Below, piece after piece: positions 6,196 to 45,931 of a stretch of 64,000 nt of DNA. The position numbers were made by a program, and so were the translations under genes. This DNA is from Paraspadella gotoi (taxonomy: Eukaryota > Animalia > Chaetognatha): NCBI GenBank assembly GCA_051294375.1, contig CM119264.1, positions 13,040,813 to 13,104,812 of the forward strand, given 5' to 3'. The first letter of the stretch is position 1; the number at the start of each line of letters is the position of its first letter. Under the pieces are notes generated by a model. The model searched no databases. It was given only the letters and a program-made list of their open reading frames with translations, and had not been told where the DNA came from.

Positions 6196-9100
6196 CTCCC
6201 TCTCTCTCTCTCCTCCCTCTCTCTCTCTCTCTCTTCCTCTGCTCTTTCTCTCGCCTTCCCCCCTCTCTCTCTCAGTGTGTCACCTTCTAAATGGTAGTTT
6301 TTTAAATTAAGGTTTAATTAAACTAATTAAATTTAACATTCTTTCCGAAAAATATTATTTTATGCAATTTCGCTTTGATTTTATCGCGAATCACTCGCAA
6401 CGATCTTCGAACGGCGGAAGGCTGTCAATGACGTCACAGAGTGATCCTTTCACCTCCTAACAATAACGACGACGACGACGACGACGACCTGAATACTGCC
6501 AAAAATAGAGTGGTTAAGTGATATTTTTTTTTCTTGGCTCCTCCTGTTTATTACATTTTGTTCGTCAACATTATTTTTGACGAGGTTCACTCTTACCCAT
6601 TTTTTTGTTTTGGTTATTTTTGTCTTGTTTTGGTCACGGATTTAATCGGTTTTTCTCTTTGAAGGGCAATATCAGTCTGTCATCATCCCTTTAGTCCTCG
6701 ATATTGCAGTTAGTCTTCCGCAACGGTCTTCTTGTCATTTGTGATTTCGCTTCTAAGAAGCGACTAACTTTGCCAAAAACGGAACGAAGAAATACTAAGA
6801 AAAAATGGTTAAAAAAACCTACCCGGACCTAGTCTCCGTTTTACATTTTCCCTACAAGTGCAATTGTCAGACATATCTGTTCAGAGTAAAAAAAAAACCC
6901 GCATTTAATGCGGCATTAAGCTAATACTCTTGCCATGATGAGAGGCGCTATTTAGCAATTAATACTTAAGTTCAGTCGTTTCGCTCATAAGAAAATTATG
7001 ATAGCCAGTTATTTGCAGAACGGAGAGAGCGAAAATGACGTATACTGTGGTGGTATATTCACACCGCCTCACGTCCACCATCGTTCAGCCAAATCCATTG
7101 GCTCAGAGGGGAAACACTCCATCCCAGGCGTTGTGTTTCATCCACAGTCCTAACGAATTCCCTCTGCGTTGGCAAAGCGAGATCGTCCTAGGGTAACCAT
7201 GCCAGTGATTGGAGGCGTCACTGAGAGTCGTAAGCCCCCTAAGGCCAACAGTGAGATGCCCCATCCCAATGGGCATCACAGGCAACCCGGATGTTGCCAT
7301 AAGTGGTGAGCCCTACTATCGAACACGCAACCTTCTTAGGGTACACTACGACAAACGCCTATGGCCCTGGGGTACGCTATGACAAACGCCTATGCCCCCA
7401 CAACTCGCTCTCTCTCTCTCTCCCACTATGGTAACAGTCTTGTCAGACACCCCTCAGGCTCGAGGAATCTGAGTGATGTCTTGGCCCGGGGATCCTGTGG
7501 CAGTATATTCACACCGCCTCACATCCACCATCGTTCAGCCAAATCCATTGGCTCAGAGGGGGAACACATCACCCCAGGCATTGTGTTCCATCCACATTCC
7601 ACAGTCCTAACGACTTCCTTCTGCGTTGGCAAAGCGAGACCGTCCTAGGGTAACCGCGCCAGTGACTGGAGGCATCACCGAGGGTCGGAAGCCCCCAAAG
7701 CCAATAGTGAGATGCCCCATCCCACTAGGCATCACAGGCAACCCGGCTGCTGCCATAGTACGCTTCTTGTTATATGTACAATTTTAATCATATTAATACA
7801 GTCTCTTCTTTAAAGATACATTTAATAATATGATTATAAGGAAACGATGAAAAAATCTAGTTCTTTTCTCGTTTGAGATTATTATCATGAGTATTCGAGA
7901 TTTTTTTTATTGCTGAGTTTTTTTCTTTCTTGTCGCGGGGGAGTTTTTGGATGGGAAATATGCTAATGCGTTTCCTTATCGCGTCCCCTGTCCCACGCAT
8001 GCTCTCTCTCTCTCTCTCTAAATATACTTATTTATTATAAAAATGTACCTACCGAGAGAGAGAGTATACAAGAGAAAAAAAGAGATGCATAACGCATATA
8101 CTTCATACATATATCTACATGCATTTATATTTTCCTTGGTTTCAGATATACTATAGTTCTTTTAATTTATGTTTTCCATTTTTGTCTATCATTTCGCCTT
8201 TCTCTTGAATCTGCCAGCTGCTCCTTCTTGTCCGCCGATTTGGGATAGGGTGTTGTGTTGGTCTCGCGCAGACGTTGGGGAAACCGTTACCAAACCATGT
8301 CCAAATCTGCTTCAATCACCGACGGGTAAGGAATTCGATAGAATTACTTTTTTTAGTAACATTTAGTAACAAATTTAATCACAATTAACCCTTGCTTTGC
8401 TTTGACTTTAGATGGTCCCTATATTTCCAGAAGTCAAGACATGACAAAACAATAGACGTCCCTCACTAAAATTATTAAATATAATAATTTACAATTGTAC
8501 ATACCTACGAACTTGGTACAACAAATATAAAAAATATTCATTCATTCAATAAACAAGTCTTGCTATTCTAAATCTAACCCACGAAAGAAATTTTGATTAA
8601 ACCTTCCACTAATACCATATCAATTTAGAAGATTACTAACATTGCGACGAAGGCGCAAATTTTTTAATTTTTTTTTAATTTTAATTTTGTATTTCACTCA
8701 TGAAAGAATCTAACTGAACCTGTGAACTTTCTTAGGCGTCTTCGCTTACCGCGTCTGCCTGGAATCTGCCTCTTGGAAATGGGGAACTTGGACCAACTAC
8801 ACTCTGTGCCTGATCCATGAGAGCGAGAACGGGACAAAAGGGGTAAACCTTTAACTGATGATGCGGAGGAGTGGAGTTATGCTAACTTAGCGGGGTACCG
8901 CCGATATCAAACTCACAACTTAACGATGAATCTAAACCAACTAAATTAAAATAAACAATTAAACACGCAAGGCGCATTTGGGATGGTGCAATACTCCTCT
9001 CAGCCAATGTTATTGGTGTAGTGGAATTGGAGTTTTTGCTACATAAACATCAATTTGATAAAAGCAAAAACGGCTCGAGCCGATGTCTATGCATAGGAAG

Positions 9101-9414: not shown

Positions 9415-10603
9415 CCTCCCTCTCCCTGTCTCTCCCAACAGTCTCTTCCTTCCGCAGACCGCTCCGCTGTCCGCGTATCACCATTCACAAGCACCTGTCC
9501 TACTCTTATCTCTTTCGAAGTTGTTTTTTTTTCGTCAATGTCGTCGTCGCCGTTGGAGTCAAGGATTTTCGAGACGCGAACGTGAGTTGAGTTAATAAGA
9601 TTTTTTCTAATTCACTTAGACAATATTTGATCATAAAAGCTCTCCGCTTCGTCCTTCCAGCCTTGGTTCTGCAAGTCGTTCGTCTTGATCAACATCTACA
9701 CGATGACGACGACCTTCTTCTGGGCCTTCAACGAAGGCTTCTTCATCGTCAGAACCGTCGTCCTCGATGTCTTCGCCGTCAACACCCGACTCTACGAATA
9801 TTTTCTCATCGGATGGGGTCGGTTAACAAATCAAAGTCTTTCATATATGTAACAGAATTATCATTTTTACCTCTATTGCTTTCCCGGCTAGTCACTTTCA
9901 ATACTTATCATTTACAATAGCTACGATCACTGAGACTTGTATGGTACCACCTCTGTATATATATTATATTATGGCAACAGCCGGGTTGCCTGTGATGCCC
10001 ATTGGGATGGGGCATCTCACCGTTGGCTTTGGGGACTTCCGACCCTCAGTGATGCCTCCAGTCACTGTTTACCCTGGGAAGGTCTCGCTTTTCCAACTCA
10101 GAGGGAAGTCGTTAGGACTGTGGATGGAACACAACGCCTGGGATGGTGTGTTCCCCCTCTGAGCCAATGGTATTGGCTGAACGATGGTGGACATGAGGCG
10201 GTGTGAATATACCGCCACAATATAAGTAGCAATTGATTATCGATAGGAACGAAACGAAAAAAAAAATCTTCTCAATCAATGCTTGGCGACACTTTTAATG
10301 CGTGGTTCAGATTCGATGTTCATATCGTTTTCTCACAGGCGCGCCGCTCGCGATAACGATCCTTTGGCTTTTGGCCATGCTCTTGGTCGACACAAGTAAG
10401 TTGCTTAGCGAAGGGAACAGAATGAGCCCACTGTGATGCGAGGATACGCTTAATCGCATAAGAACCAACGGTTGAATTTGCGTAAAATTGACTGATTTAA
10501 AAAAAAGACGCAAAAAATCTCGGATTTGAATCCAGCGTCAATTTATAAACATTGGATTTCCCGAATGCCTCTTTGACTTTGGCATTGAGGAGAGAGAGAG
10601 AGG

Positions 10604-15402: not shown

Positions 15403-18400
15403 TTAATTGTGGGACTCGGGAGATCGGTATCTCAGAAGATCCCTCAACCGCATAATACCGCATAATACCTCGTCCGCGAACGCAGTCGATTTCTTATTCA
15501 CTTCTTCCTCTTTCTTCTCCTCCATCCTCTCCTCGAGTGTCTTCAAATTGTGCGCGAGTTTGACGACGAAGAGAAGGACGAAGATCGACGTGGCTTCGAC
15601 AACCAGCAACGCGCAGACGGAGAACAATCGGTTCTCACCTGGTAGAAAACACCGATTGGATTTTTTTGTTTTTGGTTGCGTTTTTATGATTCGCTATTAG
15701 CCACTTTTCAGTCGGACGGTCTGTCTCTTAATATTAGGATCAGACGGTGAGATAAAAAAGTTAATACGGCATTGTTGATCTGATTTGTTGTCAATACCGC
15801 TTTGTTTTTCAGACCTTAAAATTTAAAATTTACATTTTTATTTAATTTTATAAAAAAATATAATCGTGTAATATGATATCCTGAGCGGTGAATCTTTTTG
15901 GAATCGACTTTCCTTGTTCAGTTAAAAATCAACGCCAGTTCGACTCACCCTCACTAACTTACCTTCAGCAGTAAAATACCACGCCGTCCACAGAATCCAC
16001 GCGATCGAAATCAAGGTGGACGCGGCGCAAATGTACTTGGTTTCCATGGAGGCGAACCTGGCGCCTCGCTTTATCCACGAGTGAATCGTCGTCGCCGTCA
16101 ACAGCAACATCGGGTAAAGGTTAATGATGTAGAAGGGTACGCCGTCGCAGGCGCAGGACCATCGAGGCGGAATGACTGGAACGGATGGGGAGGAGAGGAG
16201 GAAGACGGAGGAAGAGGGAACGAGGGCGACCCATTCCACGTTGAGGACGATTTGAAAGGTTGTGAGAGCGAGGACGAAGAGTGCCTGCGCGAAGTTGAGG
16301 GGTTGACGGGTCGTCACATGTGAGAAAACTCGTCAAATAACGACAATTATATCTACAAATTTCTCATGTCTCATTAATTTGTAGCATATTATCGTATTTT
16401 TATTGTTTAATAATCGCCTTAAACGTGACCTGTCGCCACGCTAATCCATCACCTGCGATTCCGCGTAAACGTAGGGAATGTCTTTGAGATAATGGTGGCT
16501 CTTGCGGTCGATCCTCGCATTTCGGACGGATTTAACGAGGAGGCAAGAAAACACCAAAGCGTGAAGAGGAGCAAAGACGAGACGACGAAAAAAGCAAACT
16601 TTGTCGGTGGAGGAAACCTGAAAGTCGAAATGACCAAACTACGCGTAATACCAGATTAATGGGGAAAAAAAATTTGACGTTAGCAAGGCAGCTCAAATTT
16701 TTTTCACACCGAATTTAAATAGGTCGGTCGATCTATCAATCAGTCTGTCCCTTTGTCATTCTGGCAGTCTGTGTCTCCTCTTACCATAAATCCTAAAGTC
16801 AGCAAGAACATTGAGCCGATTCCTGTGTTGAGGAGATAATTGAGAATCCCCGAAGATTGAACGTGTACCGGATTCTTGAAGTCGAAGAGAAAGTAGGAGA
16901 GACAAGCGAACGAAGCCAAGAACCCCGGTGCGGCCACCGACAGAATCCCCAAGCCCCATGGACGGGAACCGAAGAAGGCGAACCACGGTCCATCGGTCTC
17001 GTAGCCCGCCCTCTCCAGTTTCGCGAAGGCCTCGGCCAAGTCTTTGTCTAATTTTTCTTCATCGACAGATTGCTGAAGAGGCATAGAAGCAGGATGATAG
17101 GATTATAATGATCACTACAATTAGACATGAGATAGCCAGTGCCATCATGTTATTTTTTTTTTAAATTTGAAACTTCTAATATATAAAAATTCTCAATTTA
17201 TTTTTTCGGAAGGAGGTTTTACGATCCATCGTTCCCCTTACTACCTCGTCAGCGGTGCATGCTGCGCAAGCCGGTATGGCTTTGCATTTTTGATCAAGGT
17301 CGACTGTGCCGTTTAATCCGTAGACTTGTGCCGTTTGTTTATGCCTCAACAAACCGATTTGAAAGTCGGCAACGTCGACAGTCTATTTATATAAATTTTA
17401 AAAAAAAGATTAATCTCATTAAAATTTTCTTTCTTTCCTCCATGCAGCCTATACAAATATCTACTGTATCAAGCACGAAGTCAAAAGTAAACTTCTGAAT
17501 TTCGTTGAGTCAAACCTTAAAAGTTCCCCTCAACGGTCCCTCCTGAAGATTCATAATGGTGTAGATATCAGCAGAAGAATTTCTGTCCATTAATGCAAAC
17601 GTTCTCAAAGAGAGATAGTCGACCTTGAATGAGTCCTGTTCCATTCTTTCCATCAGAGTTGAATAAATGCTTGAAGGATCTGATCGATAGGAATCAAAAA
17701 CATCCTGGAGAATGGAAAAGGATAGAATAGAATAAAGCTACTAGTTAAAATAAATGCATCAAAAGGGAATATTTGATAATTAGCTCTTATTTGGCTTAAA
17801 ATTTGTTAATATTTGAAGCTGGTTTTATGTATTAAATGCACAACCTGGCAAATTCCAACTCCAACGCATTTAGAGCGGAGGAGGTAGGAGAATGATCTCG
17901 CGAGCATAATAGCGACTTGCATCATGGCTTCCACGGATGTACTCTTGTAAACAGTTTTCGGTGAGTCCAGGTTTTCGGCTCCAGAGCATGTGCGGTCGAA
18001 TTTAAAATCTAAAATAATGCTCAATTATTATTTTATTTTGGCAACCGACGGGTTGCCTGTGATGCCCATCTCACTGTTGGCATTGGGGGCTTCCGACCCT
18101 CAGTGACGCCTTCAGTCACTGGAGCGGTTACCCGAGAACGGTCTCGCTTTGCCAACGCAAAGGGAAGTCGTTTGTACTATGGATGGAACACAACGCCAAT
18201 GGGATTAGCTGATGCGGTGTGAATATATCGCCACATTATAACCTTTAGACCCTATGAATTTATGGCATTTCGTATTCATGATAAAAACTAAAATATATAA
18301 ATATCTAATGAAATTACAGACCTTAAGACTTTAGTGTTTTACTTACTTCCATTCATATTACATTGAAAATTTTCCATCCAAAATTCAGAAAAAAATTCTT

Positions 18401-21400
18401 TCCAAAGTAAATTAGGAGATTCTGAAAGATCCGAGAGCTTTAAAGACCTATAAATAAAAATTGTAATCTACTAACACAAAAAATTAAAAACTAACTTTAG
18501 ATAAAGAGTGCTACTTTTTAGTTTTAATAAGCTTAAATCTGGATTTTTTATGAATGGCTATCAATTCTGCTCCAATTTCAATTTTAAAAGAATATTGATA
18601 AGAAAAAGGTTTATATGAAATCAATAGTTTTTAATTTGTTTAATCAGTTATCAGTTAAAAATCAGCATACCTGTAGTATTTCAAAAAAGGAGTGTTGATA
18701 ATTTTCTTCGGAACAATAACTACAGATCCAAGCAGCTGTTGCATATAAGTCTCATAAGTAAAGACGTATGATGCTTCCTTGATGACCTTTTCTACAGATG
18801 TTTGGTCAAACCAGTCATCGACTCCAATCCAGTAAAGACGACCAAAAGCATCAGCATTTTTGGCGGCAAACATTACCGACACCATGCGAGCTGGGTTCAA
18901 AAGCGAAACCACCACAAACGCACCTTCAAGCCAAGAAGAATAAATAGTTAAATAATGTAGCACTCTCTTTCATTTCTGATCAATGAACAGTAGTTTATAA
19001 CTCACGTTCATTTGACATCATCTTCACCAATACTCTTTCCATATTGGCCACAGTCTCGACGTCGGACGATTGAAGCTGATTATCCGAAGCGACGCAAATT
19101 CTCCGCGTTCCAGATTGAATTTTTTCCATCAATAGCATTGCCAGCCGAACAGAAGTGGCGCTGGAATCTCTAAGTAGGTGAATTGAATTCCATTTCTGAA
19201 CCTCCAATACGGACAAGAGAACTTCAATTTTAGCCGTTTTGGAGGGGATCGCGCGAATGAAATGAGGATATCTAAAAGTATGGAGAACTAATGGACTATT
19301 AAACAATTTGACCCGTTTCGATATATTTTTAACTTGCCGATGTCTAGTGTTGAACTCTGGGTCGTCGGTGATCGCGATCTGGGGAACTGGCACATTTAAA
19401 TCTTTGATGGCGGCGTGGATTCCTTTTGAAGACAATGGGTTAGAGTCCCCAACAATGGCTAGCGTAATCGTCTCTCGGGGTTTGGTGACGGGAGAGATGA
19501 AAGCCCCCTGGCCTAAAATGAATACGTAAAAATTCTATTAAAATTACAATAATTATTACTAATATTTTTAGTATCATTAAAATTATCAACATTAAGTCCA
19601 AAGTTTGCTTGCCATAGACTTACCAAGAATAACACTTCTCGTAATACTTTCTGCAAGTATCCCATTTCCAAAAGTATCAAACGCCTGTAAATAAAAATTC
19701 CAAACAAATCTCAAAAACATAACCTTGACTATTGGAAAAAAAAAGGTTTGATTAGATTTGTGGCTTGTGTTAATAGATATGTATATCTTCTGACCTTAAC
19801 TACTATTGGCACTCCAGGCAAAATAGTATTTTCTAAATTGATGTTTTGAACAACCCAGTCAAATGCGAGAAGATTTTCCATGTTTTCCTTTAAAGAAATT
19901 TCTTCAAAAATGTATTTACTTAATATAATACATATTATTACATAAATGTTAACAAACTAAAATTTACCTGAAGAAAGTTACCTCCTTCGTCTCTCAAATT
20001 TAACATGAGATGAATTTCAGCGACATTATCAATCTGATTGTCTATAGATTGCAAGGGAAGATCAAACTGAAACGTATTCTGTATCGTAATCAAGTCTGAA
20101 AAAAATTACACACATTATATGTATTGTTGTGTCTTTCTCTTAATCATGAATTTATTCATTTATTAATCAACATTATCTTGTTTTTCCGTCAGTAAAAAAA
20201 AACGCGTTGCTAAACAACGAAGATTTCACGAGTTACTTTTAAAAGCGTCAAGAAACTCACCATTCACGGAACCACAACCAATTTTGCTGCACTTGTCCGA
20301 ATTTATAGTCGAGGGAAAATAAAATCTGTAAAAAGTTGCTTTAGGGACAGGAGGATCCAACTGACGAGAATGATATCTTCCCACTTGAGCGATGGATTTG
20401 TCTCCCCTAAAGACTCCTTCGTTGATGTTGAGAATATTTAGCGGTACACGGGCCAAACCTTTTAAAAAATGTAATAAATTAAATACCGTGATTCAGGGGC
20501 GGCGAGATGGCGGACACCAACGCCTTCGGCGAGGTCCCCTGGAGGCCCCGGGAGGGCCCCTGAGAAGAAAGAAAAAAAAAGGAAAGGAAAGAAGAAAAAA
20601 AGAAGAAAAAAAGAAGAAAAAAAGAAGAAAAAAAAGAATGGAAGAAAAAGGGGGATAAAAAGGAATTGAGTCTTTATGAAAAAAGGTTCAGTCTGTGCAG
20701 AAAGTCTTACTGATCAAATTCATGTTAGATCTTACTTGGGCCCCTTTAGACTTTAGGGTTCAAGTTGGGCCCCTATTAAAGTAAAATCAATGCCTCTTTA
20801 TTGGTAATGTCCCAACTGTTTCAGGGATAGAGTCCATTTCACTCTTAATGCGACCCCTTATTCATTCAAATTACGGCCCCTCTAGAGCCCTGGAGCAATT
20901 TTCAAGGCAGAATTTCTGCCAGAAAGTCGGTAATCGAAAATGTAATTATACAATTCTAATACTTTAAAATTCAAAGTGCCATTTTTTGAAAAAAAACTGT
21001 TAATAATAGACAAATGTTTTCTAAAAAAATGATGGAATAAAACATTACAAAAATAATGATAATATTGTTGATTTGGAAGAGGGTTCAATACCTTGCAAAT
21101 TGTAGGCGAATTGAGATTGGTTGTCAGAAATCGAGATAAAAATGCTGCTCAAGATAGCGGAGGTAAAGCATTTGTAATTATTGATTGGACACTTATTACG
21201 TTCCGCGATTGACAAAGCATGAAGAATACTGTCGATTCCATCGTAAATGTTAGTGTGATCGTCATAGTATGAAAATTTATCGTAATCCACGTATTTCAGT
21301 GATGAAGATTTCAATTCTTCACTCTGCTTCTTTACTGTCATTTCTAGAAAAGGATTATCCACTGATGAGTTGGAAGCGTCCCTAGAATTAAGAACCATAA

Positions 21401-23172
21401 CTTATGGTATTACTTATGGCATAAGTAGCGCCAATTTATCTTTTTACGCCACTCAAAAAAGAATAAATTTAAATTAAATTTCACCGCTGTAAATTTGATT
21501 TTCCTTATTCCTCATGACCGCTGTTTGTTTTTAGTGAGTTACCTCAAATGGGTGTTAAAGTTGTTCGGTAATCTCCCGAAAGATTGAGCTACTATCAATG
21601 AACCTAAGACATCGTTTGCTATTGGCAAATTTTGATCGATGGCTTTTCTGAGGAAAGGTAACGTCTCCTGAAACAAAAGCCACGTGATGGAGCTGCGACG
21701 AATCTCCGCTTCTTGCTTCATGACTTTTTGGAAGACTTCTTCTCCTCCGAAAACAATCACGACGCCGACCTGAGACAAAATCGCATAATATACAATTTAC
21801 AATGGAATGGCTGAAAATTAAAAAAAAAACACAAAAAAAAACACAATAATTTGTAAATTCTAAAAATAACGGCAACTCCTACCTCGCTATCTACGAAAAA
21901 ACGCGTAACATATCTCTTAAGCATCTGAAGGATATCTTGATCGTTGAGGGTTTTGTAGATTTTGAGTCTGTACGCGACGTGGATTTGTTCTTCATTTGGA
22001 GATTCGGCAAGAATTCCGTAAAACCTTACAGCCAATGCTTCCCAATAGGGGGAGTCTTGAATTATAACTCCAATGTTTGACCATTGATAAGCCTACACAA
22101 CGGAAAAAGATTTTATGATGAACAATTTTTTTACGACGAAGATAAAACCAGTCTACATGTTGCATATGCCTAGTCACTATGAATTTTACTCCGGTTTTTT
22201 ATATAACAATTAGTCTACAAAACCTATAAAGTTTTCATAAGTAACGAGTGATTTGGACTTCATGTACAAAACTTTTGAAAACATTTGATTTCTTTGAGAC
22301 AAAAGCCGAAACTCCACCTTGTGGCGGTATATTCGCACAGTCTCACATCCACAATCCTTCTGCCAATCCCATTGGCTCAGAGTGGGAACCCATCCACAGT
22401 CCTAACGAGTTCCCTCTGCGTTAGCAAAGCGAGACCGTCCTCGGGTAACCGTGAGAGTGACAGGATGCGTCACTTAGGGTCGGAAGCCCCCGAAACCAAC
22501 AGTGAGATGCCCCAATGGGCATCACAGGCAACAAGGCTGTCGCCATCACCTAACCTTTAATAGCAAGTGAAAGGCCGATAAAAAATCGTTGGCATTGGGG
22601 ACGCTTTGAAAGAGATGCGGCTGCTCGGTCAGCGTGACGTCGTTGGATCGAAAGTTGACGTAAGGAACCGGGACGAAGGGCGCCAATCCGTCGGCAAGAA
22701 ACGACACTACCGCCATCGAGTCGTCCTCTCCCACGACGACGATGCGCTTGAGGCCGCTGATCGATCCGTCGGGTGGAATCTTAGCGGCGAGGTATACCTG
22801 ATCAGATTCTCCATATATATTCGTTTCATATGTTTTATACTGGTTGCACCAATTTCATAGATTGTAAAATATTAAGTTGTGGCGAATTCTAAATTGGCCT
22901 CTCGTATAGCTTGGTGAAACTCAACTCGTCCGATTGGCTTGGACAGCTATGACACGCATGTCTTTCCGTTGCTATAAATCCCTATTTTGTAACTTTTTAT
23001 TTTAGTTTTTTGTATTTTTTAGTTTTATAAACTTTCGCTCAGGAAATTATATTTTATTTTTCCTTTTTTTGGCTCATATTTTTGTTTAGTTTTTGTTTTC
23101 ATCTTTTTAGCCCATTTTTCGTTATTTCCTTTACCCTCATTTTTCTATTTTTTTTTTCTTTTGCCTTTAACT

Positions 23173-23211
<39 letters not shown>

Positions 23212-24105
23212 GTCTTTCTTTCTTTCTTTCTTACTTATATATTTTTTTAATTTCGATCTACTACGAAATATGAAATAAATTTTAAAAGCCGTACAACTAG
23301 TGGACAAGGTCAGGTCGTCGAAAAAGCGTTACTTTAAGAGAGTTGACGAGGGCGTGGAGCCTCGAAATGAACTGGTAAGGAGCTCCGCATGTGGCGAAAG
23401 CGACTGCTGCTACGGAGGGGCGCGGTGGTGGGAATTCTGAGAGGACGAAGTTGACGATCTCGGGCAAGACCTATGGGAAATATAGGAATTATAATATAAC
23501 AAAATACTAATAGATCATCGCCAAAACTTTTCGCAAAAATACGTATAAAAAAACGCAAAGCAACATTTTCATCAAAGAATTATTTTGATTTTTTTTTTTC
23601 ATCGACTCACAATCAGCTGAAATTATCTCCACCTTAAAACAACAACGACGACGACGGCCAATGCGAAAAGCGACATCTTTCTCACCAATTCTTGTGGCGA
23701 TCTGGCGACGGAGCCAGGCGCTCCGCATTGCACATCGTTCGTCGATGTCTCGAACAGAGGCAAAGCGACGAAGAGGATTGTCTCCGCCGCTTCGCAGTCG
23801 CCGAAAGTCGCCAGGGGGATTTCGCTCGGGATATTCTTAAAGATGGCGCGGCAGTTGGAAGCTTTTCAAGTTAAAATGTTGAGAGACTTAATTCTAAACT
23901 TTTCTTATGAACCAGTTTTATACGGTTATGAGATAACAGTAAAAAAAACATTTAGTTTCGCCAGGTCTCTCCTTCCCCACAAAAGCCAATTCGCCTCTAT
24001 TCTTCAAACAACTTTGAAAAAATTTAAATATTACTTACCACTTTCAGTTTCGTTCATGGCTAAACTTAGAACTAAAATTATTAGGAAATTCTTAATTCCA
24101 GCCAT
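15403..24105 (-). CDS. Class C (mGluR-like) GPCR paralogue A with two tandem Venus flytrap modules and 7TM
   Basis: Signal exon MAGIKNFLIILVLSLAM from 24105. VFT1 (~23860-20260) with VPYVNFRSNDVTLTEQPHLFQSVPNANDFLSAF and YQWSNIGVI. VFT2 (~20095-17245) with LLAFDWVVQNINLENTILPG, VPQIAITDDPEFNTRHR-YPHFIRAIPS, LYWIGVDDW, FSEFWMENFQC. 7TM motifs NPVHVQSSGILNYLL, SCLLVKSVRNARI, ETKYICAAS. Stop at 15403. Confidence 0.88.
18037..18235 (-). mobile_element. Solo LTR of the twister-LTR family
   Basis: Reverse-complement, internally shortened LTR copy with exact 4-bp TSD TTAT; lies in an intron of class C GPCR A. Confidence 0.9.
20494..20892. mobile_element. Possible degenerate hAT-type MITE
   Basis: Starts CAGGGGCGGC and ends GCCCTG, with repeated GGGCCC motifs inside an AT-rich intron. 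TIRs match over only 5 bp and no 8-bp TSD was found. Confidence 0.3.
22320..22547 (+). mobile_element. Solo LTR of the twister-LTR family
   Basis: LTR copy with exact 4-bp TSD ACCT, a few nt from a splice donor of class C GPCR A. Confidence 0.9.
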
Positions 24106-24605
24106 CGTTTTCTTTTAACATAGTTATTTTGCCAGGATAAAAATGTAAAAGTTTAAAAACGCAATAAAAAAAAACCAGTTTTAAAACAAATTCAATCTCA
24201 TCTGTCAGTACAAACCGGTTTTTTTTTTCAATCAAGCGGCTGATCAATCCCTAGGTTTTTCGTTTACATTGCACGGTAAGAACTAAATTGTACTTATGAG
24301 AGAATCGAGAGGCAATTTGCCAATAAAAACAAAGATTCTCGAATTACATCGTGTATATCTTGCTGAAAAATAAACTGCAGTAAAAAATAACAGTATGTGA
24401 AATTTTTATTTTACATAGTTAACACTAACAGAAATCAAGTTTGACAAAAAAAAACCACCCAAATATACAAAGAATAATAATTTATCACTATTTCAATTAC
24501 CAAAAACAAGCGCAGGTTATCATTGACAGAAGAACTGTCTTCACAACAAACCATGAATCTCTCCATTAAAAATTTATTTTTGATTTTCCTGATTTGTACC
24601 AAAAG

Positions 24606-27600
24606 TTATTGGAAATAACTCATTTTGCTGATCTTAAGGGTTGTCCCATCTATCTTGTGAATTCGTTCCTTTTGTTTAGACTGGTTATTGCTTGGTAATC
24701 TTGTCACATGTTCAACATGATTCATCACATAGTTTTCAATTGCGCCACGTTCCTAAAATCGAAACCAAATGTATGTTGTTTACCGATCGGGATATACGAC
24801 CAAACGGCTAAAAACTTTTAAACAAAATGATTGTCGTCATTAAAATATATATATGTTAATTAGTAATTAAAGTTTAAAAAACTAATCTTGGATATTTATT
24901 GATGATCCCAAACCTGAAAAACGACGTCTCTGGAAGACAGAGCGGATTTTTGACTTATAATACTGATTGCTTTTAACTCGAGTGTCTTGAATTTGTTTGT
25001 CCACTTGATAACAATGAGAAAAATAAATATACTGAGAGATTCTACAATCAGCAGTAAGCATATGGAGAGTAACTGTATTTCGCCTGAGTTTAAGGATTAA
25101 AAACGTCTTAATATAATATTAGATATTAGATATTAGATCGCGGCCACTTTTTTACCTTCGCTCAAAAAGTACCACACCGTCCAGAGAATCCAAGCCAAAC
25201 AACAGAATAACGACGCCAGCGAGATAAACCACGTCTCTTTATCAGCAAATTTAGTTCGTCGGTTGATCCAGGAATGGATAAGCGTTAACAGCAGTAAGAA
25301 CAGTGAGTATATGTTGATAAAGTAAAACGGAATACCGTCGAAGGAGCAAGACCAGCGCGGAGGGAGATAGGGAACAGTGGGGGAAATCAGGAGGAATGTG
25401 CTGGTGGAAGGAACGAGAAGAACCCATTCCAGACTGATGACAACTTGCACAGCAAAGAGGGATGTGACAACGAGGAGCTGAGAGGATAAGTATTAATTTA
25501 ACATAAATTTTTACGTCATTGGCGACGTACTACTTTACCTGAGATCCTGCATAAACCATCGGAATGTCGCGCTGACACTTTTGTTTGAAGCGATCAATTC
25601 GCGCATTGCGAATCGATTTCGCAAGCAAGCAAGAAAACAAAAGAGCGTGGAGAGGGGCAAAGACGATACGACGCACGGCGCACACACGTGGAGTCGATGC
25701 CACCTAAGATCAAATGTTCCCAACGACAAAATTTAAATTTCGGGCGTCGTTCTGTCAATTGACAATTTTCATCCCCCTCGTTCTTACCAGAAAGGTCAGG
25801 CAGAAAAGAAAGGTGAGGCAAATCGCAATGTTGAGGATGTAATTCAGAATCGGAGATGACTGGACGTGGACTTCGTTTTTGAAGTCAAGGACTAAGAGTA
25901 CCAGAGTGGCAAAGGAAGAGAGGAATCCTAGGATTACGATGCCGAAGACGATCATGCCCCAAATCCTCGACGCAAAGAATTCCAACTCTGGCTCGTTTGG
26001 GTCATAACCCGCGGTTTTTAGTTGGTCAGATGGTTTAAGTGTGGGCGATGAAATGCTCAGATTAAATGTGTTTAAGTCCTTCAGAAAATTATTAAAGGTT
26101 GTTAGAGAGTGCCAACTCTCATTTGCATTTTTGATTTAGAATTTTTCTCGGAATGTAAAATTATATATTATGGGTTATAAAATATCATTAATATTTTATC
26201 ATTTGATTGATTTTGTCTTAGATTATCAATGAAGCAAAAAAAAAATAAATACATTTTTTTTAGCATTGTGTCGAAAAATCTCATTTCTAAGGTACTATTA
26301 ATTAGTACTTACGGCTCCAATCTGCACGCAATCTCCGCAAACCGAGTCCTTTTCACATTTTGATACTAAATTGATCCTTTCCCGTTTTGGTCCATAAGCA
26401 GAGACGAGCAAGTCGTTCAGTTGCAACTCATTCGATTCGTGGGAACCAACATTTACAATCTGAATCAACGAGATGTATTTCATGAATACAACTTTATAAT
26501 ACGTAATTATCGTTAGCTTTAGCTACATACATACATTTTGACAACACTCTTACTTTAAAGGTATTTGCGAGAGTTCCCTTTTGAACGTTTCTTATAGCGA
26601 AGTATGCCGAAGCGTTTCGTTGGGTCAATATTAGAGGTCTAAGCTTAAGAGAGTCAGCGAGAGGGTCACCGACGATACTAGTTGTTTCGATCTTTCCCAT
26701 GAGATTTTGATAGAATGTATCGGAATTTTGAACGACCTGCGTTATCGCCGTCTGTGACGGAGTTGTTGACGCAATCAATTTCAATATTCAAGAATTATGA
26801 GCAAGACCTGATGGTTTTCTTACCGAGCATATCGTGGCTATTCCACATATGGATTGAAGGTGAGCTCGAAAAGCTTTGGTCAGTAAAAAAGCGACCTGCA
26901 TCATAGCTTCGACATCGTAGCTTTCATATGTGGTCTTAGGTGAATCCAGAGTCTCGTCCCCAGTGCAAGTACGGTCGTACTGAAAGCCTTTAAATCATTA
27001 TTAGTTATTAGAATTAACTTAAAAATATATATAGTACATAAATTTTTTTGACAGCCTTCATTTTTTAAAAACAATTTTTCACTGATCAACATTAAAGCGA
27101 CTTACTTCCACCGAGATTGCATTTAAAGTATGACATCCAAAAATGGTAAAAAAACTCGCGCCAAACCAAATTAGGAGAAGAACCAATCATTGTCAAATTT
27201 AACGACCTACAAGTAAAATAAAAAGAGAAATTAGATTATAATTAATCTTAAATACGTAATAGTTATAAATCTGTTCCATTCTTACTTAAAATAGTTCAAA
27301 AAAGGCACATTGATCGTTCTTTTAGGCACTATCACTATGGATCCCAACATCTGTGACGTAAAACTATGGAGACTAAATATGATTCCCGTTTGCTTTATGG
27401 TGTCGTTGATTGTGATTTCATTGAACCAGTCGTCAACGCCAATCCATTGCAGATGGCCAAACGCTTCAACTATGGAGGCGACGTACATCATCTCGACCAT
27501 TCGATCGGGTCCGACGAGTGAGATGACAACGTTGGCATCTATGAAGTCGGATGTGAACATCTTATTTTTGATCCAATTTCGCAGATGGTCATTGTGAAGC

Positions 27601-30600
27601 CAACTTACTTTTTACCAACATCATTCTTTTCAATATTCTCTTCATATTGTCGATGGTCTCGACATCCCTCGTTCTCAACTGGTTGTCAGTAGCGACACAG
27701 ATCTTCCTGTCGCCAGTAAGTCCTTTGATCTTCTGCTCCAGTAGCATGGCGAGACGAACGGATGTGGCGGAGGAGTCTCGAAGGACGTGGACGTAAGTCA
27801 AGTCGCGGTTCTGCAGCAGCGCGATAAGCACGTCGATCGTCATCGTTTTGCTCGGCACTGCGCGCAGGAAGGTCTGGTATCTGAACAGTCAAAGTTTGCT
27901 TGTAGCCATTATCTTAATTAGCTAATGGTTAAGTTTAGTTCAAGTATGTAAAGTAAAGATAGCCGAGCCACAGTAGTTAAGAGCTGACCTATCTCTTCTG
28001 TTCATTTCTGGGTCATCCGTGATGCCGACTTGCGGAAATGGAACCTGCATGTCAGTAATGGCAAATTGAATGCCTTTGGAGGAGTCCAACACAGAATCGC
28101 CAACGACGCTCAATGCGATTTCATGTTGAGGTTTGGTAATCGGGGAAATGAACGCTCCTTGGTCTTGAGGATGAAAAAAAAGGCCGAGTGGAATAAAATG
28201 AAAGAAATGCAAATCTAAATCTAACTCTACATTTAACTCTTACTCTTACTCCAGTCTTACCCACGAGAAGGCTTCGCATAGTGCTTTCTGCAATTTGTTC
28301 CGATCCGAACGTGTTTAAAGACTGCAAAATTTAAACTAAGTTGTGCCAAGTCTGAATAATCTTTAGTCGAAGAATTAGTACATGGGTAATTCTATAATTA
28401 AAATTAATTAGATTATATTGTTTCTTTAATAAGAATTATGAAATGATTTAATTAGAATAAATATTTCTTAACCTTAATAAGAATTCGAATGCCCGGCAAA
28501 ATCTTATTTTGTTCGTTGATTGTCCTCAAGGCCCAATCAAATGCCAGGAGATTTTCCATGTTCGTCCGATGAAAATTTCCATGTTCGTCTTTGAGTTTCA
28601 ACATCAAAAAGATCGTGACGACGTTGATGGTGTTGGTGTAGACTCTTGGAGGATGATGAAGCGGGAGGTCAAAATGACGTACGTATTTGACGGCCATGAG
28701 ATCTGAGGAGAGAGGAATAATGAGGGAAGAATGAGAATGAGAATCGTGATTAGTTATTAAAGGCAAAACAATTTTTAAGCAACGATGTTATCTCAGAATG
28801 TCTACGAATAAAATATTTACTTACCCTCGACCCATCCGCAGCCATTGGGTCCACACAATTTCGAATCGATCTTTTCAACCTCAAATTGTAAATTATTGTA
28901 GAAGACAGCAGAAGGAATCTGCGGATCGAGTGTCCGAGATACGTAGCGACCGACAGATTCGATTACTGGAAAATTGCTTCCATATTTTTTGATATTGAGA
29001 ATGTCCAGACCAACGCGAGCTAAGCCTATTTTTGGAAATGTTAGTTATCAACCCTCTGAGGGTCTTTAAGTCAGTTGATCATGGCAGCTAACTATATCAT
29101 GAACCGAGGCACCGTTCAGAGGAAGGTCAAACCTTGCAAGTTATACGTGAAGGTTGTTCCTTGGTAGGCGAGAGACTCGAATTGCGTGCTCAGAATACCG
29201 GATGAGAGGCAGGAGAAATCGTGGAGGGCACAAGAACGCTTCTCCGCATACTCTAGCCCTTGGAGAATGCTGTAAAAGGCGTTGTAGAAGTTGATATGAT
29301 CATCAAAGTGACGAAATGCGTCGTAGTCAACAAAAGTTATTTGTCTCCCAAGCACCGCACTCTGCTTTCGCAAGCATTCCGCCAAAAATGGGTCCGTCGC
29401 GTAGTGTGATGAAATTCTGAAAGCGAAAAGACCGAGATGATAGTTGGAAAATAAATACGTAAATGGACGGTGTCCAACGAAATAAATAAAAATAAACTCA
29501 CTTTAAATGCTCAGTAAAGTTTGATGGAAGTTTGGCAAAGGTCTGTGATAGAATAAACGATCCGAGAAGGTTTCTTACATTCGTCAATTGTTTTTCAATG
29601 AGACTTCTAATGTAAGGGAGAGTTTCTTGGAACAGCATCCAAATAGGACTGAATTTGTTGACGGTCAATCTGTCGTGAATAATCTGGAAAGACTTCCGGC
29701 TTCCAAAAAAAATAACAACGCGGGCCTTTTGCGAAAAAAAAAATTAAATCAATACTACAAAAAAAATGATTTATTTCGACATTCATGATATAAAAAAAAA
29801 AAGAACCTGCTCCGCGTAATAAAGTTTCTGAATATAATTTTCTAGAAGAAAGTCGATGTCATCGTCATTGAAAGAAGTGAAGACCGTCAGCGTATATGCG
29901 ATTTTAATCTGTTGATCTCTGGGCGTCTGCCCCAGCATTCCATAGAATCGTTCGGCCAAAGATTTCCAGTATACCGAGTCCTCAACCAAGACTCCTATGT
30001 TGGTCCATCCATAAGCCTATGTATTAGAAATGTAGGCAAAAATCGGGTATTATATAGAAGGGTAGTAGGTTGTGGCGGTGTATTCGCACCGCCTCACATC
30101 CCATTGGTTCATAGGGGAAACGCACCATCCACTGTGGTTTCCACAGTCCTAACGACTTCACTCTGCGTTGGCAAAGCGAGACCGTCCTAGGGTAACCGCG
30201 CCAGGGACAAGAGGCGTCACGGAAGCCCCCATCTCAATGGGCATCATAAGAAACCCGGCTGTTGCTGTAAGGTAATGTTTACTTAAGCTAGGACTAAGCT
30301 CTGACGAACAAAGCCCGAGGCTTTTTTTAAATATATTCTTATACCGGCCAAGGTAGAATGATGGCAATATTGTTAATATTAAGTTTAAAAAAAATCCGAC
30401 TATAAATATAGAAAATATTAACCAAAATCTTCGGAAAATTCACCCCTTCTTTGGAAGATTTTTCGCCATAGAAAGATTTTTCCCGAATCTGACTCCCGGT
30501 TGAAAACTCTTAGAATTCCTATCGTTAGCTCCTCTTTTACTTTTACTTTAAATAAAAATTTCACCAAAATGGACTAATTAACTTTACCATGATCGTATCT

Positions 30601-33223
30601 TATCAAAATAACCTAATAAAATGTAAAGAAAAATTATGAGAGCCCTTCAGACACTTTGCCAAAGGATTCCAAAATTGGACCTCATTTGTTGAACAGGAAC
30701 ATACCTCAGTCACGTTTATATTGTTTTCAAGAAAAAAAATCCCTTTCATTTCTATATAAAATCAGAGATGGAAAATTTTTCCGTCCAGAAGCAGTCTATT
30801 TGTTCTGGCTTGTTTGATATCAAGATGTTGATGATTTGACAAGAGAAAAAAAATGCGAGCCCTTCAGATGCAACAGGATCGGAATCAAGTGTTTTTACAT
30901 CGATATTTTACCAGAATTTTTACCAGGAGCGTTTATATTGTTTGGTAGTCAGATTTGAACGAAAATCTCCATTGAAAAAGTCTTCCTCGATCTCTAAGAA
31001 CGACGTAGACTCCTACTTAAGCGCAAGAAAAAAAAATTTCTTAATTTAAAGAGGGAAAGTTCAAAGCATCTTAGCATTCGAATTTTTTGGTTTAATTTCT
31101 AATTTATAAAGAAACAAGTTTATAGTTGTAGAGCTGTTCTTTATTCGTCATTTCTGTTAAAGTTTACCCGCCGAGTGGGTTTCATCTCATGCACAGATTT
31201 TGTAACTGAATTTCGAAAACTATTTTTTTTTGCTTAAAATGTTGCGACGTGCGATTGTGACGATTTTGAAAATTGTGAAATATTCAAGAGGTTTTCGAGA
31301 ATGATTCTAGATCTTGCTTTATTCTACCTGACACCCTTCATAGCAGTTACCCCCCAAAAAACACATTCACATTCTTCACACCTCCAGCAGTCGGGCGAAA
31401 GCGGAAAGAAAATCGTTTGTGTTCGGGACGCTCTGAAAGAGATGCGGCTGTTGGGTGAGAGAAACGTCGTTTGATCGAAAGTTAACGTAAGTGACGGGTT
31501 GAAAAGGATCGAGACCCGTGGCGAGAAACGAAACCACCGCGGGCGAGTCGTCTTCGCCGACGACGACGAGACGTTTGAGATGCGCGAGGGATCCTCCAGG
31601 GGGAGGTGTGCCAGCCGAAGACGATGGAGAAGAGAGGTGGCTCTAAGACATTAGTAAAAAAAAATGTCATCGGGATTTTCGACTTGAATTGGCGACGATT
31701 ATAATCACGACAACAAAACCTGGATATCAACAACGAGGTCAAAAAGATAAGATATGAAAGAATAGGGATCGCCGCAGGTCGGAAAGATGACAATGGCGAC
31801 GGAGGGAAGCGGATTCGGGAATCTCGACATCACGAAGTGGACGATCTCGGGCACAACCTGTCGAGCGGATTGGTCGCAGGGGGTAAAAAACAAGAGTTGG
31901 TCCAAAATTAATTTTTTGTCGAGTTTAAAAGGGATGGAAAAGAATTAAAGAATTACGTGAACGTGCGACGGTTTTTTGTAAAAAATATAGAGATTAGAGA
32001 ATTTGTTGCGGTTGCAACATTAGGCGTAGCACAGTAATTCTGCTCCAACTATTGATATAGATCAGGAGAAAATGACGAATACCGGGTAGCTACCTCTACA
32101 ATGATCTGTATGTACCAATATTTTGTTGCTCTGTATCGTGGTTTTAATAAGGTTTTCTCTTACGCGAACTACAGGGCTACAGGCTACAGGGCTACAGTCT
32201 ACAGGGCTATACTTTAAATCTCAGCCTATGCTCATCGCTCAATGCTCACCAATTCCGACTCCTCTTTAAAGACGGAACCGGGAGCGCCGCAATTGGATAC
32301 GTTGACTGACGCTTCAAAGAGCGGGAGCGCGACGAAGACGATGGTGGATGACACGTCGCAATCACCGTAGGTTGACATGGGAACGTCCACCGGAAAGGAC
32401 TTGAAAATGGCGCGGCAGTTGGATGAGTCTGCTTGGAAAAAATCAATTAAAAAAAAACTTTTCTACAGGGGTGGGACCCTATATCGAGACAAAATTTAAA
32501 AAACCATTAATCTAAAGCTCTTAATGATTTTTAAAATCAGAATAAATATTCATAAGTACTCTCTCTTAGCTTTTAGTTGATATATTAATTGCTTTGAAAT
32601 TCTTTGATATAATGCTTTCTTTGATGCAGCAAAGGCAACTGTTCGGTTTTTTTCCACGCGTTTTGAAAGAAATATGTTTGAATACTTATTGTTAAATCTC
32701 ATTCTAATACATAAAAGTTAAAAATATTTTTAACTGTACCCAGGGAAACGAATTTTATGTTCTACTGAGCCGTGGAGGGAAGTTATTGCCTCAGAAATAT
32801 TTTAAGACCCGTGCTTTTTCCCTTTATAAATGTTACTTTTCTGCATACCGAGGCGACTGATGATTCTCTGATTTGTTGTCTGTACTGAATCAACCTTGTT
32901 GCGTTCGAATAAAAACGCTTAAATTATATTACCGAAAAAAAAAGAAAAAAAATATAGCAATAATCCTCCTATTAATTTTGATTTATAAAGCATCAACATT
33001 TTATGAGGTTTTTTCCAAAAGTTTTTCAATAACTAAAAAAAATATCAACGTTTCGTGTTCATATAGATATCATTTTTTAAAATTATCTTAAAGGAGAATG
33101 AAATAAAGTAAAATTGTTACCGTCAAAGCAAGGTTAATTCTCACCATTGTATCTGAGAGTAAATCCTGATTGCAACAGTGACAGAATGATGATAAACGAT
33201 ACGAAGAAAGGATTCAGCGTCAT
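24606..33223 (-). CDS. Class C (mGluR-like) GPCR paralogue B with two tandem Venus flytrap modules and 7TM
   Basis: Nearly exon-by-exon colinear with paralogue A. Signal MTLNPFFVSFIIILSLL from 33223; SNCRAIFK...VFVALPLFE...CGAPGS; AYGWTNIGVLVEDSVYW. Second VFT NMENLLAFDWALRTINEQNKILPG, LRDSSATSVRLAMLL, LQWIGVDDWF. 7TM VHVQSSPILNYIL, PPRWSCSFDGIPFYFINIY. Stop TAA 24606-24608. Confidence 0.88.
30071..30269 (+). mobile_element. Solo LTR of the twister-LTR family (internal deletions)
   Basis: LTR copy with exact 4-bp TSD AGGT; lies in an intron of class C GPCR B. Confidence 0.88.
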
Positions 33224-33834: not shown

Positions 33835-39019
<5,185 letters not shown>

Positions 39020-44049: not shown

Positions 44050-44143
44050 AAATCCACGAAAATTCTCGGATGTAAATTTGGGATTTTGTATTGAGAAAAA
44101 AGCGCGGAATAAATGGCGATAATAAAAGTTTTTAGAAGGAAAA

Positions 44144-44182
<39 letters not shown>

Positions 44183-45235
44183 AGCTGGACAGCCGCTGGA
44201 CCGCCCGCTGGACCGCCGCTGCAGAGCTGAACTCATTTTCCGACGAATATGAGTAGGGACAAACTCTTTTCCTTTCTATAAAAAAATATTACAAAATAAA
44301 TATTTGGGTATAGAGCCATATAAGAAATTTTTTGTACATTGAAAGTAAACTTAAAAATGCATAAATTTTCGTTTGAGCATGTTCCCATACTAAATTTTTG
44401 ATTCACCCCATTGAGAGGGGCTACCCCTATTCAGAAGAAAAAAAACTAAACTCTTTTCAATAATAATGATCCAAAAATTATAATCCCTATTAACAAAATA
44501 TATAGTTGAAAATACTCAGTTAACGACTATGATATTTTTGACTTCCAAATATTTTTTTACTTATCAAAAAAAATTTTATTCCTCATTTTAAAAAATTTTA
44601 ATCTTGAATGAAATTTTTGATTGTTCTTTTTTAGGAAGAAACCAGACCGAGGTCAAATTTTATATTTGCATATTTAATTAATTTATAAATAGTTATCACA
44701 CATCAAATCAAAATTATTATTTAAAAAAAGATAAAAATGATTAAATATTAACACTAAAATATTTATAAATTTAATAATAGTATAAATTATCAGAATAACA
44801 AAAAAAGTAATGTTAATTTTGTCTATATCTCTCTTATCAACTCCTATTTTAGATATAATTTGCCAATAGTGGGCCAACCGGTTCAAAGTTACAATAATAA
44901 ATAAATACAAATTTATTTTTTTTTAAATGTAATGCATATTGTTCGGCGAAAGTGCTGCATATATAATAAGTCACATTAGCTGATTTATATGTGACAATGC
45001 ATGTCAATATAAGTTATTCTTCACTTTTTTAAAAATGTATCCACAAAAATCTCGGATGTAAATTTGGGATTTTGTATTGAGAAAAAGCCCCGAATAAAAG
45101 TTTTTAGAAAGAAAACAATCATAATTTTTCAAAAAAAAAACGATCACGCAAGAGAGCGTAAAGAAAGAAAGAGAAAGAGAGACAAAGCTGGACAGCTGCT
45201 TGAAGGCCGCTGTACAGTCAGTGCAGAAACTGAAA
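44050..45235. repeat. Diverged ~190-bp direct duplication (copies ~44050-44230 and ~45038-45235)
   Basis: Shared TCTCGGATGTAAATTTGGGATTTTGTATTGAGAAAAA and AAGCTGGACAGC...GCAGA..TGAA blocks. Confidence 0.75.
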
Positions 45236-45931
45236 TAAAGAATAAAAGAAATAAAAGAAATGCAAAAAATGTTACAATGGTTTACAATTTGAAATTTTTC
45301 CAATTTTTCCAATCGCAGTCTTGTAAAAGATTTTATTTTTATTTGTATTAAAATTAAGATATAGCTTCTCATTAAAAAGTTATTTTGAGTTCCCATTTTT
45401 ATTAGAGATTTAAAAAAATTTTTTTGAATTTCATCTTCAATATTATATACTGCAATATGTAAATTAGATTAAAGCATTTCTATATACTAATTTTGGATAT
45501 GATAATGAGTACTATAATCTAATTTGCATATTGCAGTAATCATAATGAAGTGGAATTCAAACAAAAAATACTTAAATCCAAATGTAATAAGAAAAAATAT
45601 CAAAGCTATTTCAAGATGAGAAGCCATATCTAAATTTTTAACTTACTATGAATGCACACTTTGTAAAACTTTATCATAATTCATAATAATTTTTATTTTA
45701 AAAAAAACGGTAAGTCACAGCCAAACGACGACGACGACGACGACGAACGACGTCACAAAGAAGCTCACCCGAATGAATATCAAGCCTGAACCGGCTTCGC
45801 CGGTCATGGCTTGATAAAAAGTTGAGTCTGCTCTCTCTCGTTGACCAACGACTTAGTTGGTTTTAAGTTTCTTTAGAGCTTACCGGTTTTTTGTCTTTTG
45901 ATCCTTCACCGACTGAGGAACTTTCTTGATG

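Follow-up and report, generated by a model that had tools for sequence, protein, structure and literature searches.

Does an animal genome hold retrotransposons with long terminal repeats (LTRs) that carry a self-cleaving ribozyme and move in the manner of the LTR retrozymes of plants? The question is raised by a noncoding element at positions 7046 to 7757 of a 64,000-nucleotide (nt) stretch of DNA from the chaetognath Paraspadella gotoi (contig CM119264.1, positions 13,040,813 to 13,104,812 of the forward strand; the whole stretch is called the window here), which an initial annotation had read as a miniature LTR element with a twister ribozyme in each LTR. We propose, with a probability of about 0.55, that it is an old copy of an abundant miniature LTR retrotransposon with a predicted type-P5 twister and that the family moves as an LTR retrozyme, by way of a circle of ∼450 nt and with a helper of the CsRN1 type.

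Structure of the element and its candidate helper

The element spans 712 base pairs (bp), is noncoding, and consists of two LTRs around a core of 194 bp (Table 1), with the coordinates and the near-perfect 4-bp target duplication (ATAC/GTAC, alike at 3 of 4 letters) that the initial annotation had given. An old insertion is indicated by the LTRs, which share only 90.2% of letters in 255 ungapped columns and differ by two indels (Kimura distance, 0.107). Were LTR1 and LTR2 separate solo copies, the flanks would agree at only 1/4 letters for the former and 2/4 for the latter, which argues that the pair is one insertion. The core sequence occurs once in the window, and the open frame overlapping it has no Pfam match. 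The locus has the features of a terminal-repeat retrotransposon in miniature (TRIM): two LTRs around a short noncoding core (<1 kb), a target duplication in the range of 4 to 6 bp (3/4 letters here, perfect at 4/4 solo copies), and a primer-binding site just 3' of the first LTR, scored against the published CsRN1 pattern. Together with the TGT...ATA ends and the deep coverage of the core described below, they bear out the reading as a miniature LTR element, and an LTR-type nonautonomous element is very probably what lies at 7046 to 7757.

CsRN1-like Gypsy elements are described as using a tRNA-Trp primer site, making a 4-bp duplication, and having altered ends, either TGT...ATA or TGT...AAA (PMC2582038), marks that are restated in PMC3630058. 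The same three marks are found here: TGT...ATA ends, a 4-bp duplication, and a tRNA-Trp primer site, of which the TGG noticed previously (starting at 7304, 2 nt after LTR1) forms part and which agrees with the published pattern at 11 of 12 letters. The first 10 letters of this site occur a single time in the window. Because ends, primer site, and duplication match the CsRN1 clade, the helper is probably of CsRN1 type (Ty3/Gypsy), which supports the Gypsy-type helper suggested before and narrows it to one clade.

Around the primer site, a 12-bp interrupted hairpin (7303 to 7349) is predicted from pairing with the first core unit, and it could hide or present the site. A strong predicted hairpin (7444 to 7479) stands directly 5' of the polypurine position and includes the majority contig letters at 7452, 7461, and 7468; at the polypurine position itself, no majority letter change is listed in sequencing run X9. 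Near the LTR start, upstream of the ribozyme, a short inverted repeat (7087 to 7103 and 7537 to 7553) with CCAAT-like words and a TATA-like word is a possible promoter.

An abundant family with fixed termini

We found four solo LTRs in the window, all flanked by perfect 4-bp duplications, whereas a random pair of 4-mers matches with a probability of 0.006. The LTR density is six per 64 kb, and the LTR has short imperfect inverted ends; only one full LTR-core-LTR copy was seen whole, in this 64-kb window. We then evaluated contig depth over 6900 to 7900 in four sequencing runs (X1 and X3 from one sample, X4 from another study), as a rough measure that gives no copy number. Depth in run X1 was 324,511 to 606,858 in core bins versus 65 to 116 in flank bins, and in run X4 it was 49,660 to 132,038 versus 11 to 30, respectively; across DNA runs from two studies, LTR and core alike exceeded the flanks in depth by a factor of thousands. 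Run X9, which may be an RNA run, covered the LTR and the core and not the flanks, but a small amount of genomic DNA could give this pattern as well, and it is not taken as a sign of expression. The core is clearly a repeated part of the family and no chance spacer.

Loose ends of contigs gather at 7046, 7301/7302, and 7496, and the flanks beyond them are mixed, AT-rich, and of low agreement, which argues for fixed termini at many sites. Contig joints leading back from 7397 and from 7363 to 7335 indicate that the number of 31-nt core units varies; in such back-going joints, a circle is indistinguishable from copies that mix LTR1-like and LTR2-like letters. Between 3 and 12 contigs per run (X1, X3, X4, and X9) leave the core at 7332, after the LTR, the primer site, and ∼30 nt of core, and all continue into one common other sequence. 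As a lead, this sequence could be a sister element or the 5' leader of the helper.

A predicted type-P5 twister in the LTR

We searched for twisters with a strict descriptor that demanded the core letters, the full pseudoknot T1, and at least 3/4 pairs in P2 and in P4. The order of its blocks follows the Rfam Twister-P5 consensus, as displayed with the phage controls, and Table 1 of PMC8501958; the descriptor recovered 111 of 141 phage loci, themselves preselected by a similar pattern. On both strands of the window it matched once, at 7634 to 7696 within LTR2, with U at 7651. None of 200,000 dinucleotide shuffles of LTR2 and none of 150 shuffles of the window gave a match. Stems P3 and P5, which are outside the descriptor, form at the expected sites, P3 between T2 and P4 (7/7 pairs in LTR1 and 5/7 in LTR2) and P5 with 6/6 pairs in both LTRs.

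LTR2 contains the core bases of a type-P5 twister in P5 order (U^AA, GA, and L4 G-U-NNN-AAGC-C), both pseudoknots whole (T1, 3 bp; T2, 2 bp), and the stems P2 and P4 with 3/4 pairs and one fixed A·C each; the motif shares its strand with the primer site. The type-P5 anatomy assigned to the motif is supported by its core bases, its two pseudoknots, P3, and P5, and LTR2 is predicted to hold a well-formed but unusual twister fold of this type. A twister-like motif had been claimed for each LTR: the LTR2 motif stands, as a strict match beyond chance, whereas that of LTR1 is damaged (T1 contains a U·U, and P2 and P4 have additional mismatches) and was reached with a relaxed descriptor only. The predicted U^A cleavage sites at 7194/7195 and 7651/7652 were confirmed in position, 457 nt apart.

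The family's own ribozyme words gave 0 matches in viral and metagenome contigs. A looser ribozyme pattern gave four viral and two metagenome matches, none of them a twister by Rfam, and 18-mer matches in prokaryote genomes (n = 25) extended over at most 34 bases and were attributed to chance. Three phage contigs (L042, at 40 to 2176, L075, and L116) carry arrays of three to five type-P5 twisters at a spacing of ∼350 to 600 bp.

Table 1. Coordinates of the element, its parts, and the solo LTRs of the family (window positions)
Feature	Positions	Strand	Remarks
Left target-site duplication	7042..7045	+	ATAC; matches right copy at 3/4 letters
Miniature LTR element	7046..7757	+	712 bp, noncoding
LTR1	7046..7301	+	256 bp; TGT...ATA ends; contig loose ends at 7046 and 7301/7302
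Twister-like motif (type P5), LTR1	7168..7249	+	damaged; relaxed descriptor only; predicted U^A at 7194/7195
Core	7302..7495	+	194 bp, noncoding; GC 55% versus 35% in flanks
Primer-binding site, tRNA-Trp type of CsRN1-clade Gypsy	7304..7315	+	11/12 letters of published pattern (PMC2582038)
Two 29-nt core units	7339..7398	+	period 31; unit number varies among copies
Weak polypurine-tract position	7481..7495	+	run of 5 purines
LTR2	7496..7757	+	262 bp; TGT...ATA ends
Twister-like motif (type P5), LTR2	7625..7705	+	strict descriptor match; block order as Rfam Twister-P5 consensus
P5, LTR2 motif	7625-30/7700-05	+	6/6 pairs
P2, LTR2 motif	7634-37/7654-57	+	3/4 pairs, one fixed A·C
Core letters, LTR2 motif	G7638, A7639	+	conserved core
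Pseudoknot T1, LTR2 motif	7640-42/7686-88	+	whole, 3 bp
Short P1 segment, LTR2 motif	7643-50	+	8 nt
Predicted U^A cleavage site, LTR2 motif	7651/7652	+	
Pseudoknot T2, LTR2 motif	7658-59/7691-92	+	whole, 2 bp
P3, LTR2 motif	7660-66/7674-80	+	5/7 pairs
P4, LTR2 motif	7681-84/7693-96	+	3/4 pairs, one fixed A·C
Right target-site duplication	7758..7761	+	GTAC; 3/4 letters as on left
Solo LTR	9970..10219	-	duplication ATAT/ATAT; ribozyme without P2
Solo LTR	18037..18235	-	duplication ATAA/ATAA; T2 mismatch
Solo LTR	22320..22547	+	duplication ACCT/ACCT; T2 mismatch
Solo LTR	30071..30269	+	duplication AGGT/AGGT; P4 and P5 deleted

Variation of the motif across the family

We next compared the motif among copies. 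The unpaired core positions are identical in all six window copies at 7 of 8 sites, and the eighth is deleted in one copy. At the sites where LTR1 or LTR2 breaks a pair of T1, P2, P3, or P4, most of the contig depth carries the pairing letter, the two A·C sites being the exception. In run X9, one diverged contig has 23 other letters over 151, with the changes assigned by their shared depth of 213.6; it turns an A-U pair of P3 into G-C and keeps T1 through a wobble, and no catalytic-core change is listed for it. In twisters assayed elsewhere, flaws in P1 and P2 and over most of P4 were tolerated and changes to the pseudoknots or the catalytic bases were not (PMC11662667), and cleavage without P1 was near wild type (PMC5408937). 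We think it probable that the twister is active in intact members of the family.

Results that weigh against the proposal

A number of results speak against a retrozyme with a working twister. At the level of the element, no helper sequence was found, and a retroelement domain was absent from the 121 frames covered among the 181 window frames of at least 80 amino acids, the other 60 being of low complexity. The tract before LTR2, noted earlier as G-rich, amounts to only 5 consecutive purines ending 3 nt 5' of LTR2, and as a polypurine tract it is weak. Release of a monomer is affected as well. A double cut at 7046 to 7757 itself is doubtful because the LTRs are ∼10% diverged and the ribozyme of LTR1 is damaged, and the earlier claim of a 457-nt monomer released here is better applied to the family, with a unit of ∼450 nt. 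This monomer folds only modestly better than shuffles (z of -1.85 as a linear and -1.49 as a circular molecule).

As for the ribozyme, the tolerances of the descriptor were chosen after the sequence had been seen. The initial annotation had named a missing Rfam twister match as counting against it, and we found none in the whole window, in 6900 to 7900, or in 7605 to 7720, though the same models match 15 of 18 pattern-selected phage control loci. A covariance model built from 32 phage P5 twisters, which is without pseudoknots and dominated by one P2 type, also misses the LTR motif with filters off; its single match, elsewhere in the window (E value, 2.6), was dismissed as chance. The profile misses are likely due to the P1 segment, which is 8 nt here against 12 to 30 nt in primary phage parses, to the P3 insert, to other T1 letters, and to the A·C at the active-site end of P2. 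That A·C is fixed, as is a second one at the far end of P4. Core and both pseudoknots are whole in only one of the six window copies (LTR2); the pseudoknots are broken or lost in LTR1 and three solo LTRs, and the fourth solo LTR lacks P4. Core letters differ at 7/117 positions versus 64/896 in the rest of the LTR, so that they are no better conserved in window copies, and covariation among these copies does not exceed that of shuffles, 210 of 500 of which reach the score. This lack of excess conservation is what neutral decay gives and speaks neither for nor against an active source. In run X9, the diverged contig, besides its compensated changes, breaks one P3 pair and seems to make the closing pair of P4 a wobble.

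Proposed RNA unit and route of transposition

The unit from U^A to U^A measures 457 nt at the locus and ∼450 nt in copies without a 7-nt insert of LTR2, which is missing from 6,022 of 10,412 depth units in run X9; its GC content is 55%. We propose that a transcript, begun in the 5' part of LTR1 or made by read-through, would be cut at U^A in both LTRs. Because both would be cut at the same site, the RNA would lose the terminal repeat needed for strand transfer, and we therefore suggest its closure into a circle by a host ligase. The same argument made a circle the most plausible template in plant retrozymes (PMC4918200). Circularization would rejoin the ribozyme, which would then be kept in a competing fold: for the LTR2 ribozyme region, a rod-like fold is predicted at -25.3 kcal/mol and the nested stems at -11.5 kcal/mol, 14 apart with pseudoknots not counted, and the greater stability of the rod fits a blocked ribozyme state. 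A tRNA-Trp would prime the reverse transcriptase of the helper, copying across the junction would rebuild whole LTRs, and the helper's integrase would insert the copy with a 4-bp duplication. By analogy with the plant elements, we lean toward the RNA circle as the template for transposition.

The short P1 allows a further, tentative extension of this scheme. Its eight letters between T1 and U^A are self-complementary (self-duplex, -11.0 kcal/mol) and alone form no proper hairpin, a 2-bp stem with a 4-nt loop being possible, so two LTRs on one transcript could swap strands, as is thought of the hammerheads of axolotl retrozymes (PMC7229834). The P1 segments of both LTRs might then pair into a double twister, in which case only full LTR-core-LTR transcripts would be cut and circularized, intronic solo LTRs would stay quiet, and the family might represent the first LTR retrozyme from an animal as well as the first retrozyme with a twister. 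Against such a dimer, three of the six window copies alter one of the two middle letters of P1, the small hairpin could form, and P1 was dispensable in the published tests cited above.

Alternative explanations

The proposed circle has to be weighed against an ordinary TRIM whose active twister has another job, such as trimming read-through or ending the RNA instead of poly(A), with uncut linear RNA, copied by way of normal strand transfer, as the transposing form. We see an appreciable but minor chance of this. Twisters trim the 5' ends of Perere-3 in Schistosoma (PMC8501958), neither AATAAA nor ATTAAA occurs in any of the six LTRs, and the competing fold could leave most transcripts uncut; yet the ribozyme is present in both LTRs, so efficient cutting would strip the terminal repeat, and the layout mirrors that of plant retrozymes, whose circles were shown (PMC4918200). 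Alternatively, the twister could be an inactive relic, either acquired from another element or passed down from the LTR of the helper. The very short P1, the two fixed A·C mismatches, the missing profile match, and the window copies without excess conservation or covariation would all fit a relic. We nevertheless regard it as unlikely: inserted copies decay neutrally whatever the state of their source, most contig depth retains the catalytic bases and both pseudoknots, and the P3 pair of the diverged contig changed on both sides.

Two more radical readings fare worse. That there is no true LTR element at all, the locus being instead a repeat of the Penelope type, one akin to non-LTR retrozymes, or two copies resembling short interspersed elements or miniature inverted-repeat transposable elements (MITEs) 194 bp apart, is very unlikely. 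In the literature, animal retrozymes form a non-LTR class with ties to Penelope elements (PMC7229834; preprint 10.64898/2026.07.22.740005), and a dense repeat with short imperfect inverted ends would suit such a class. The ends are fixed, however, 4-bp duplications flank all solo LTRs and surround the pair, a CsRN1-type primer site follows LTR1 by 2 nt, and the core itself is very deep, whereas animal retrozymes are reported to lack LTRs, primer-binding sites, and polypurine tracts and to have larger duplications (PMC7229834). Finally, a chance likeness to a twister in a GC-rich LTR is highly improbable. Rfam and the phage-trained model do miss the motif, and the predicted folding of the 91-nt region is no more stable than that of shuffles (z, 0.22), but no shuffle of LTR2 satisfied the descriptor, and P3 and P5 appeared in their expected places unasked.

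Comparison with known systems

We compared the element with plant LTR retrozymes as described in PMC4918200. It shares with them a noncoding LTR-core-LTR organization, a 4-bp duplication, a primer site that follows the first LTR, a motif for self-cleavage within the LTR (here a predicted one), solo LTRs, a Gypsy-type helper (here a probable one), and a GC content of ∼55%. Plant retrozymes carry type III hammerheads, a tRNA-Met primer site, and a unit of 600 to 1000 nt, whereas the present element has an animal host, a predicted P5 twister, a tRNA-Trp site of CsRN1 type, a unit of ∼450 nt, and a weak polypurine tract. In the element, CUGANGA occurs on neither strand and Rfam gave no hammerhead. 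It falls outside retrozymes as these are defined, for want of a hammerhead, but probably works like a plant LTR retrozyme.

Animal non-LTR retrozymes are likewise small units with a self-cleaving motif, built as tandem hammerhead repeats without LTR, primer-binding site, or polypurine tract (PMC7229834); the locus, with its LTRs and without type I hammerheads in tandem, is not one of them. Among animal TRIMs, Helenus and Ajax resemble it in having less than 1 kb, two LTRs, a primer site, no coding region, and a small-RNA-like module within the LTR, and animal Helenus also in its 4-bp duplications; the modules of Helenus/Ajax-type TRIMs are promoters derived from tRNA or 5S RNA, and that of our element is a ribozyme fold (PMC10886601). 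ARAGORN and Rfam detected no tRNA or 5S piece in the element. Members of the CsRN1 clade (PwRn1 and AgCR) share the TGT...ATA ends, the primer site (11/12), and the 4-bp duplication, and differ in that the element has no gag or pol; a ribozyme is not mentioned for the clade in the available portion of PMC2582038. The LTR2 motif is like type-P5 twisters (Rfam RF02684) in block order, core letters, and the pairing of both pseudoknots, and unlike them in its 8-nt self-complementary P1, in having both P3 and P5, and in the A·C of P2 and of P4; its T1 letters are not among 111 phage parses. Schistosoma Perere-3 also places a self-cleaving motif in an animal retroelement, but this element is autonomous, belongs to the non-LTR class, and carries a single P1-type twister at its 5' end (PMC8501958).

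The contrast that the initial annotation had drawn between LTR hammerhead retrozymes in plants, non-LTR hammerhead retrozymes in animals, and non-LTR twisters in Schistosoma, is right according to PMC7761336, PMC7229834, and PMC8501958. Plant retrozymes are described as having LTRs and type III hammerheads and animal ones as non-LTR with type I (PMC7761336, PMC7229834, PMC9695139, and PMC11722881), the latter without primer-binding site and polypurine tract (PMC7761336 and PMC7229834), and a derivation of animal retrozymes from Penelope elements is the subject of a 2026 preprint (10.64898/2026.07.22.740005). Twisters have been tied to RTE and Perere-3 non-LTR elements (PMC7761336 and PMC8501958); an LTR-type reverse transcriptase lay downstream in 1.6% of Schistosoma twister variants, with no link drawn (PMC8501958). 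Twister-bearing circles are known from metatranscriptomes (bioRxiv 2022.07.19.500677). We found no case of an LTR twister in the available text of PMC6765202, PMC10085705, and PMC13725137, and neither a twister in an LTR nor an animal LTR retrozyme in the literature searched by title and start of abstract, a scope outside which Roth et al. 2014, the supplement of PMC11662667, Repbase, and Dfam may record the family or the ribozyme.

Genomic surroundings

Exons for family-3 G protein-coupled receptors (GPCRs) lie in the window together with exons for a tetraspanin, a PQ-loop protein, and an amino-acid permease. One permease exon has its best relatives in a horsehair worm and in echinoderms (55 to 64% identity). 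At least two tandem family-3 GPCR genes, with 7tm_3 and ANF_receptor exons, occupy 15925 to 29502 on the - strand. Three solo LTRs lie in or beside them, and the copy at 18037 is in gene sense, with T2 broken. Positions 22571 to 22752 and 31398 to 31579 are 76% alike and are likely paralogous receptor exons. A MITE-like self-inverted repeat of ∼290 bp lies at 45350 to 45638, close to two segments that are 73% alike (44052 to 44225 and 45039 to 45227). A tRNA-Arg(ACG) gene was found at 35127 to 35201 on the - strand; the primer site of the element does not correspond to the 3' end of this tRNA.

Implications

If our proposal is true, an animal element with Gypsy-type LTRs and a twister fills both empty cells of the split between plant LTR and animal non-LTR retrozymes, and the retrozyme strategy would have had a further origin that combined a different ribozyme with a different helper clade. 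Natural twisters would also gain a second role, beyond the trimming of Perere-3. Such elements may be undercounted in annotated genomes because Rfam misses the motif. Because it is abundant, the family would permit the still unproven role of an RNA circle as template in LTR-type reverse transcription to be tested directly.

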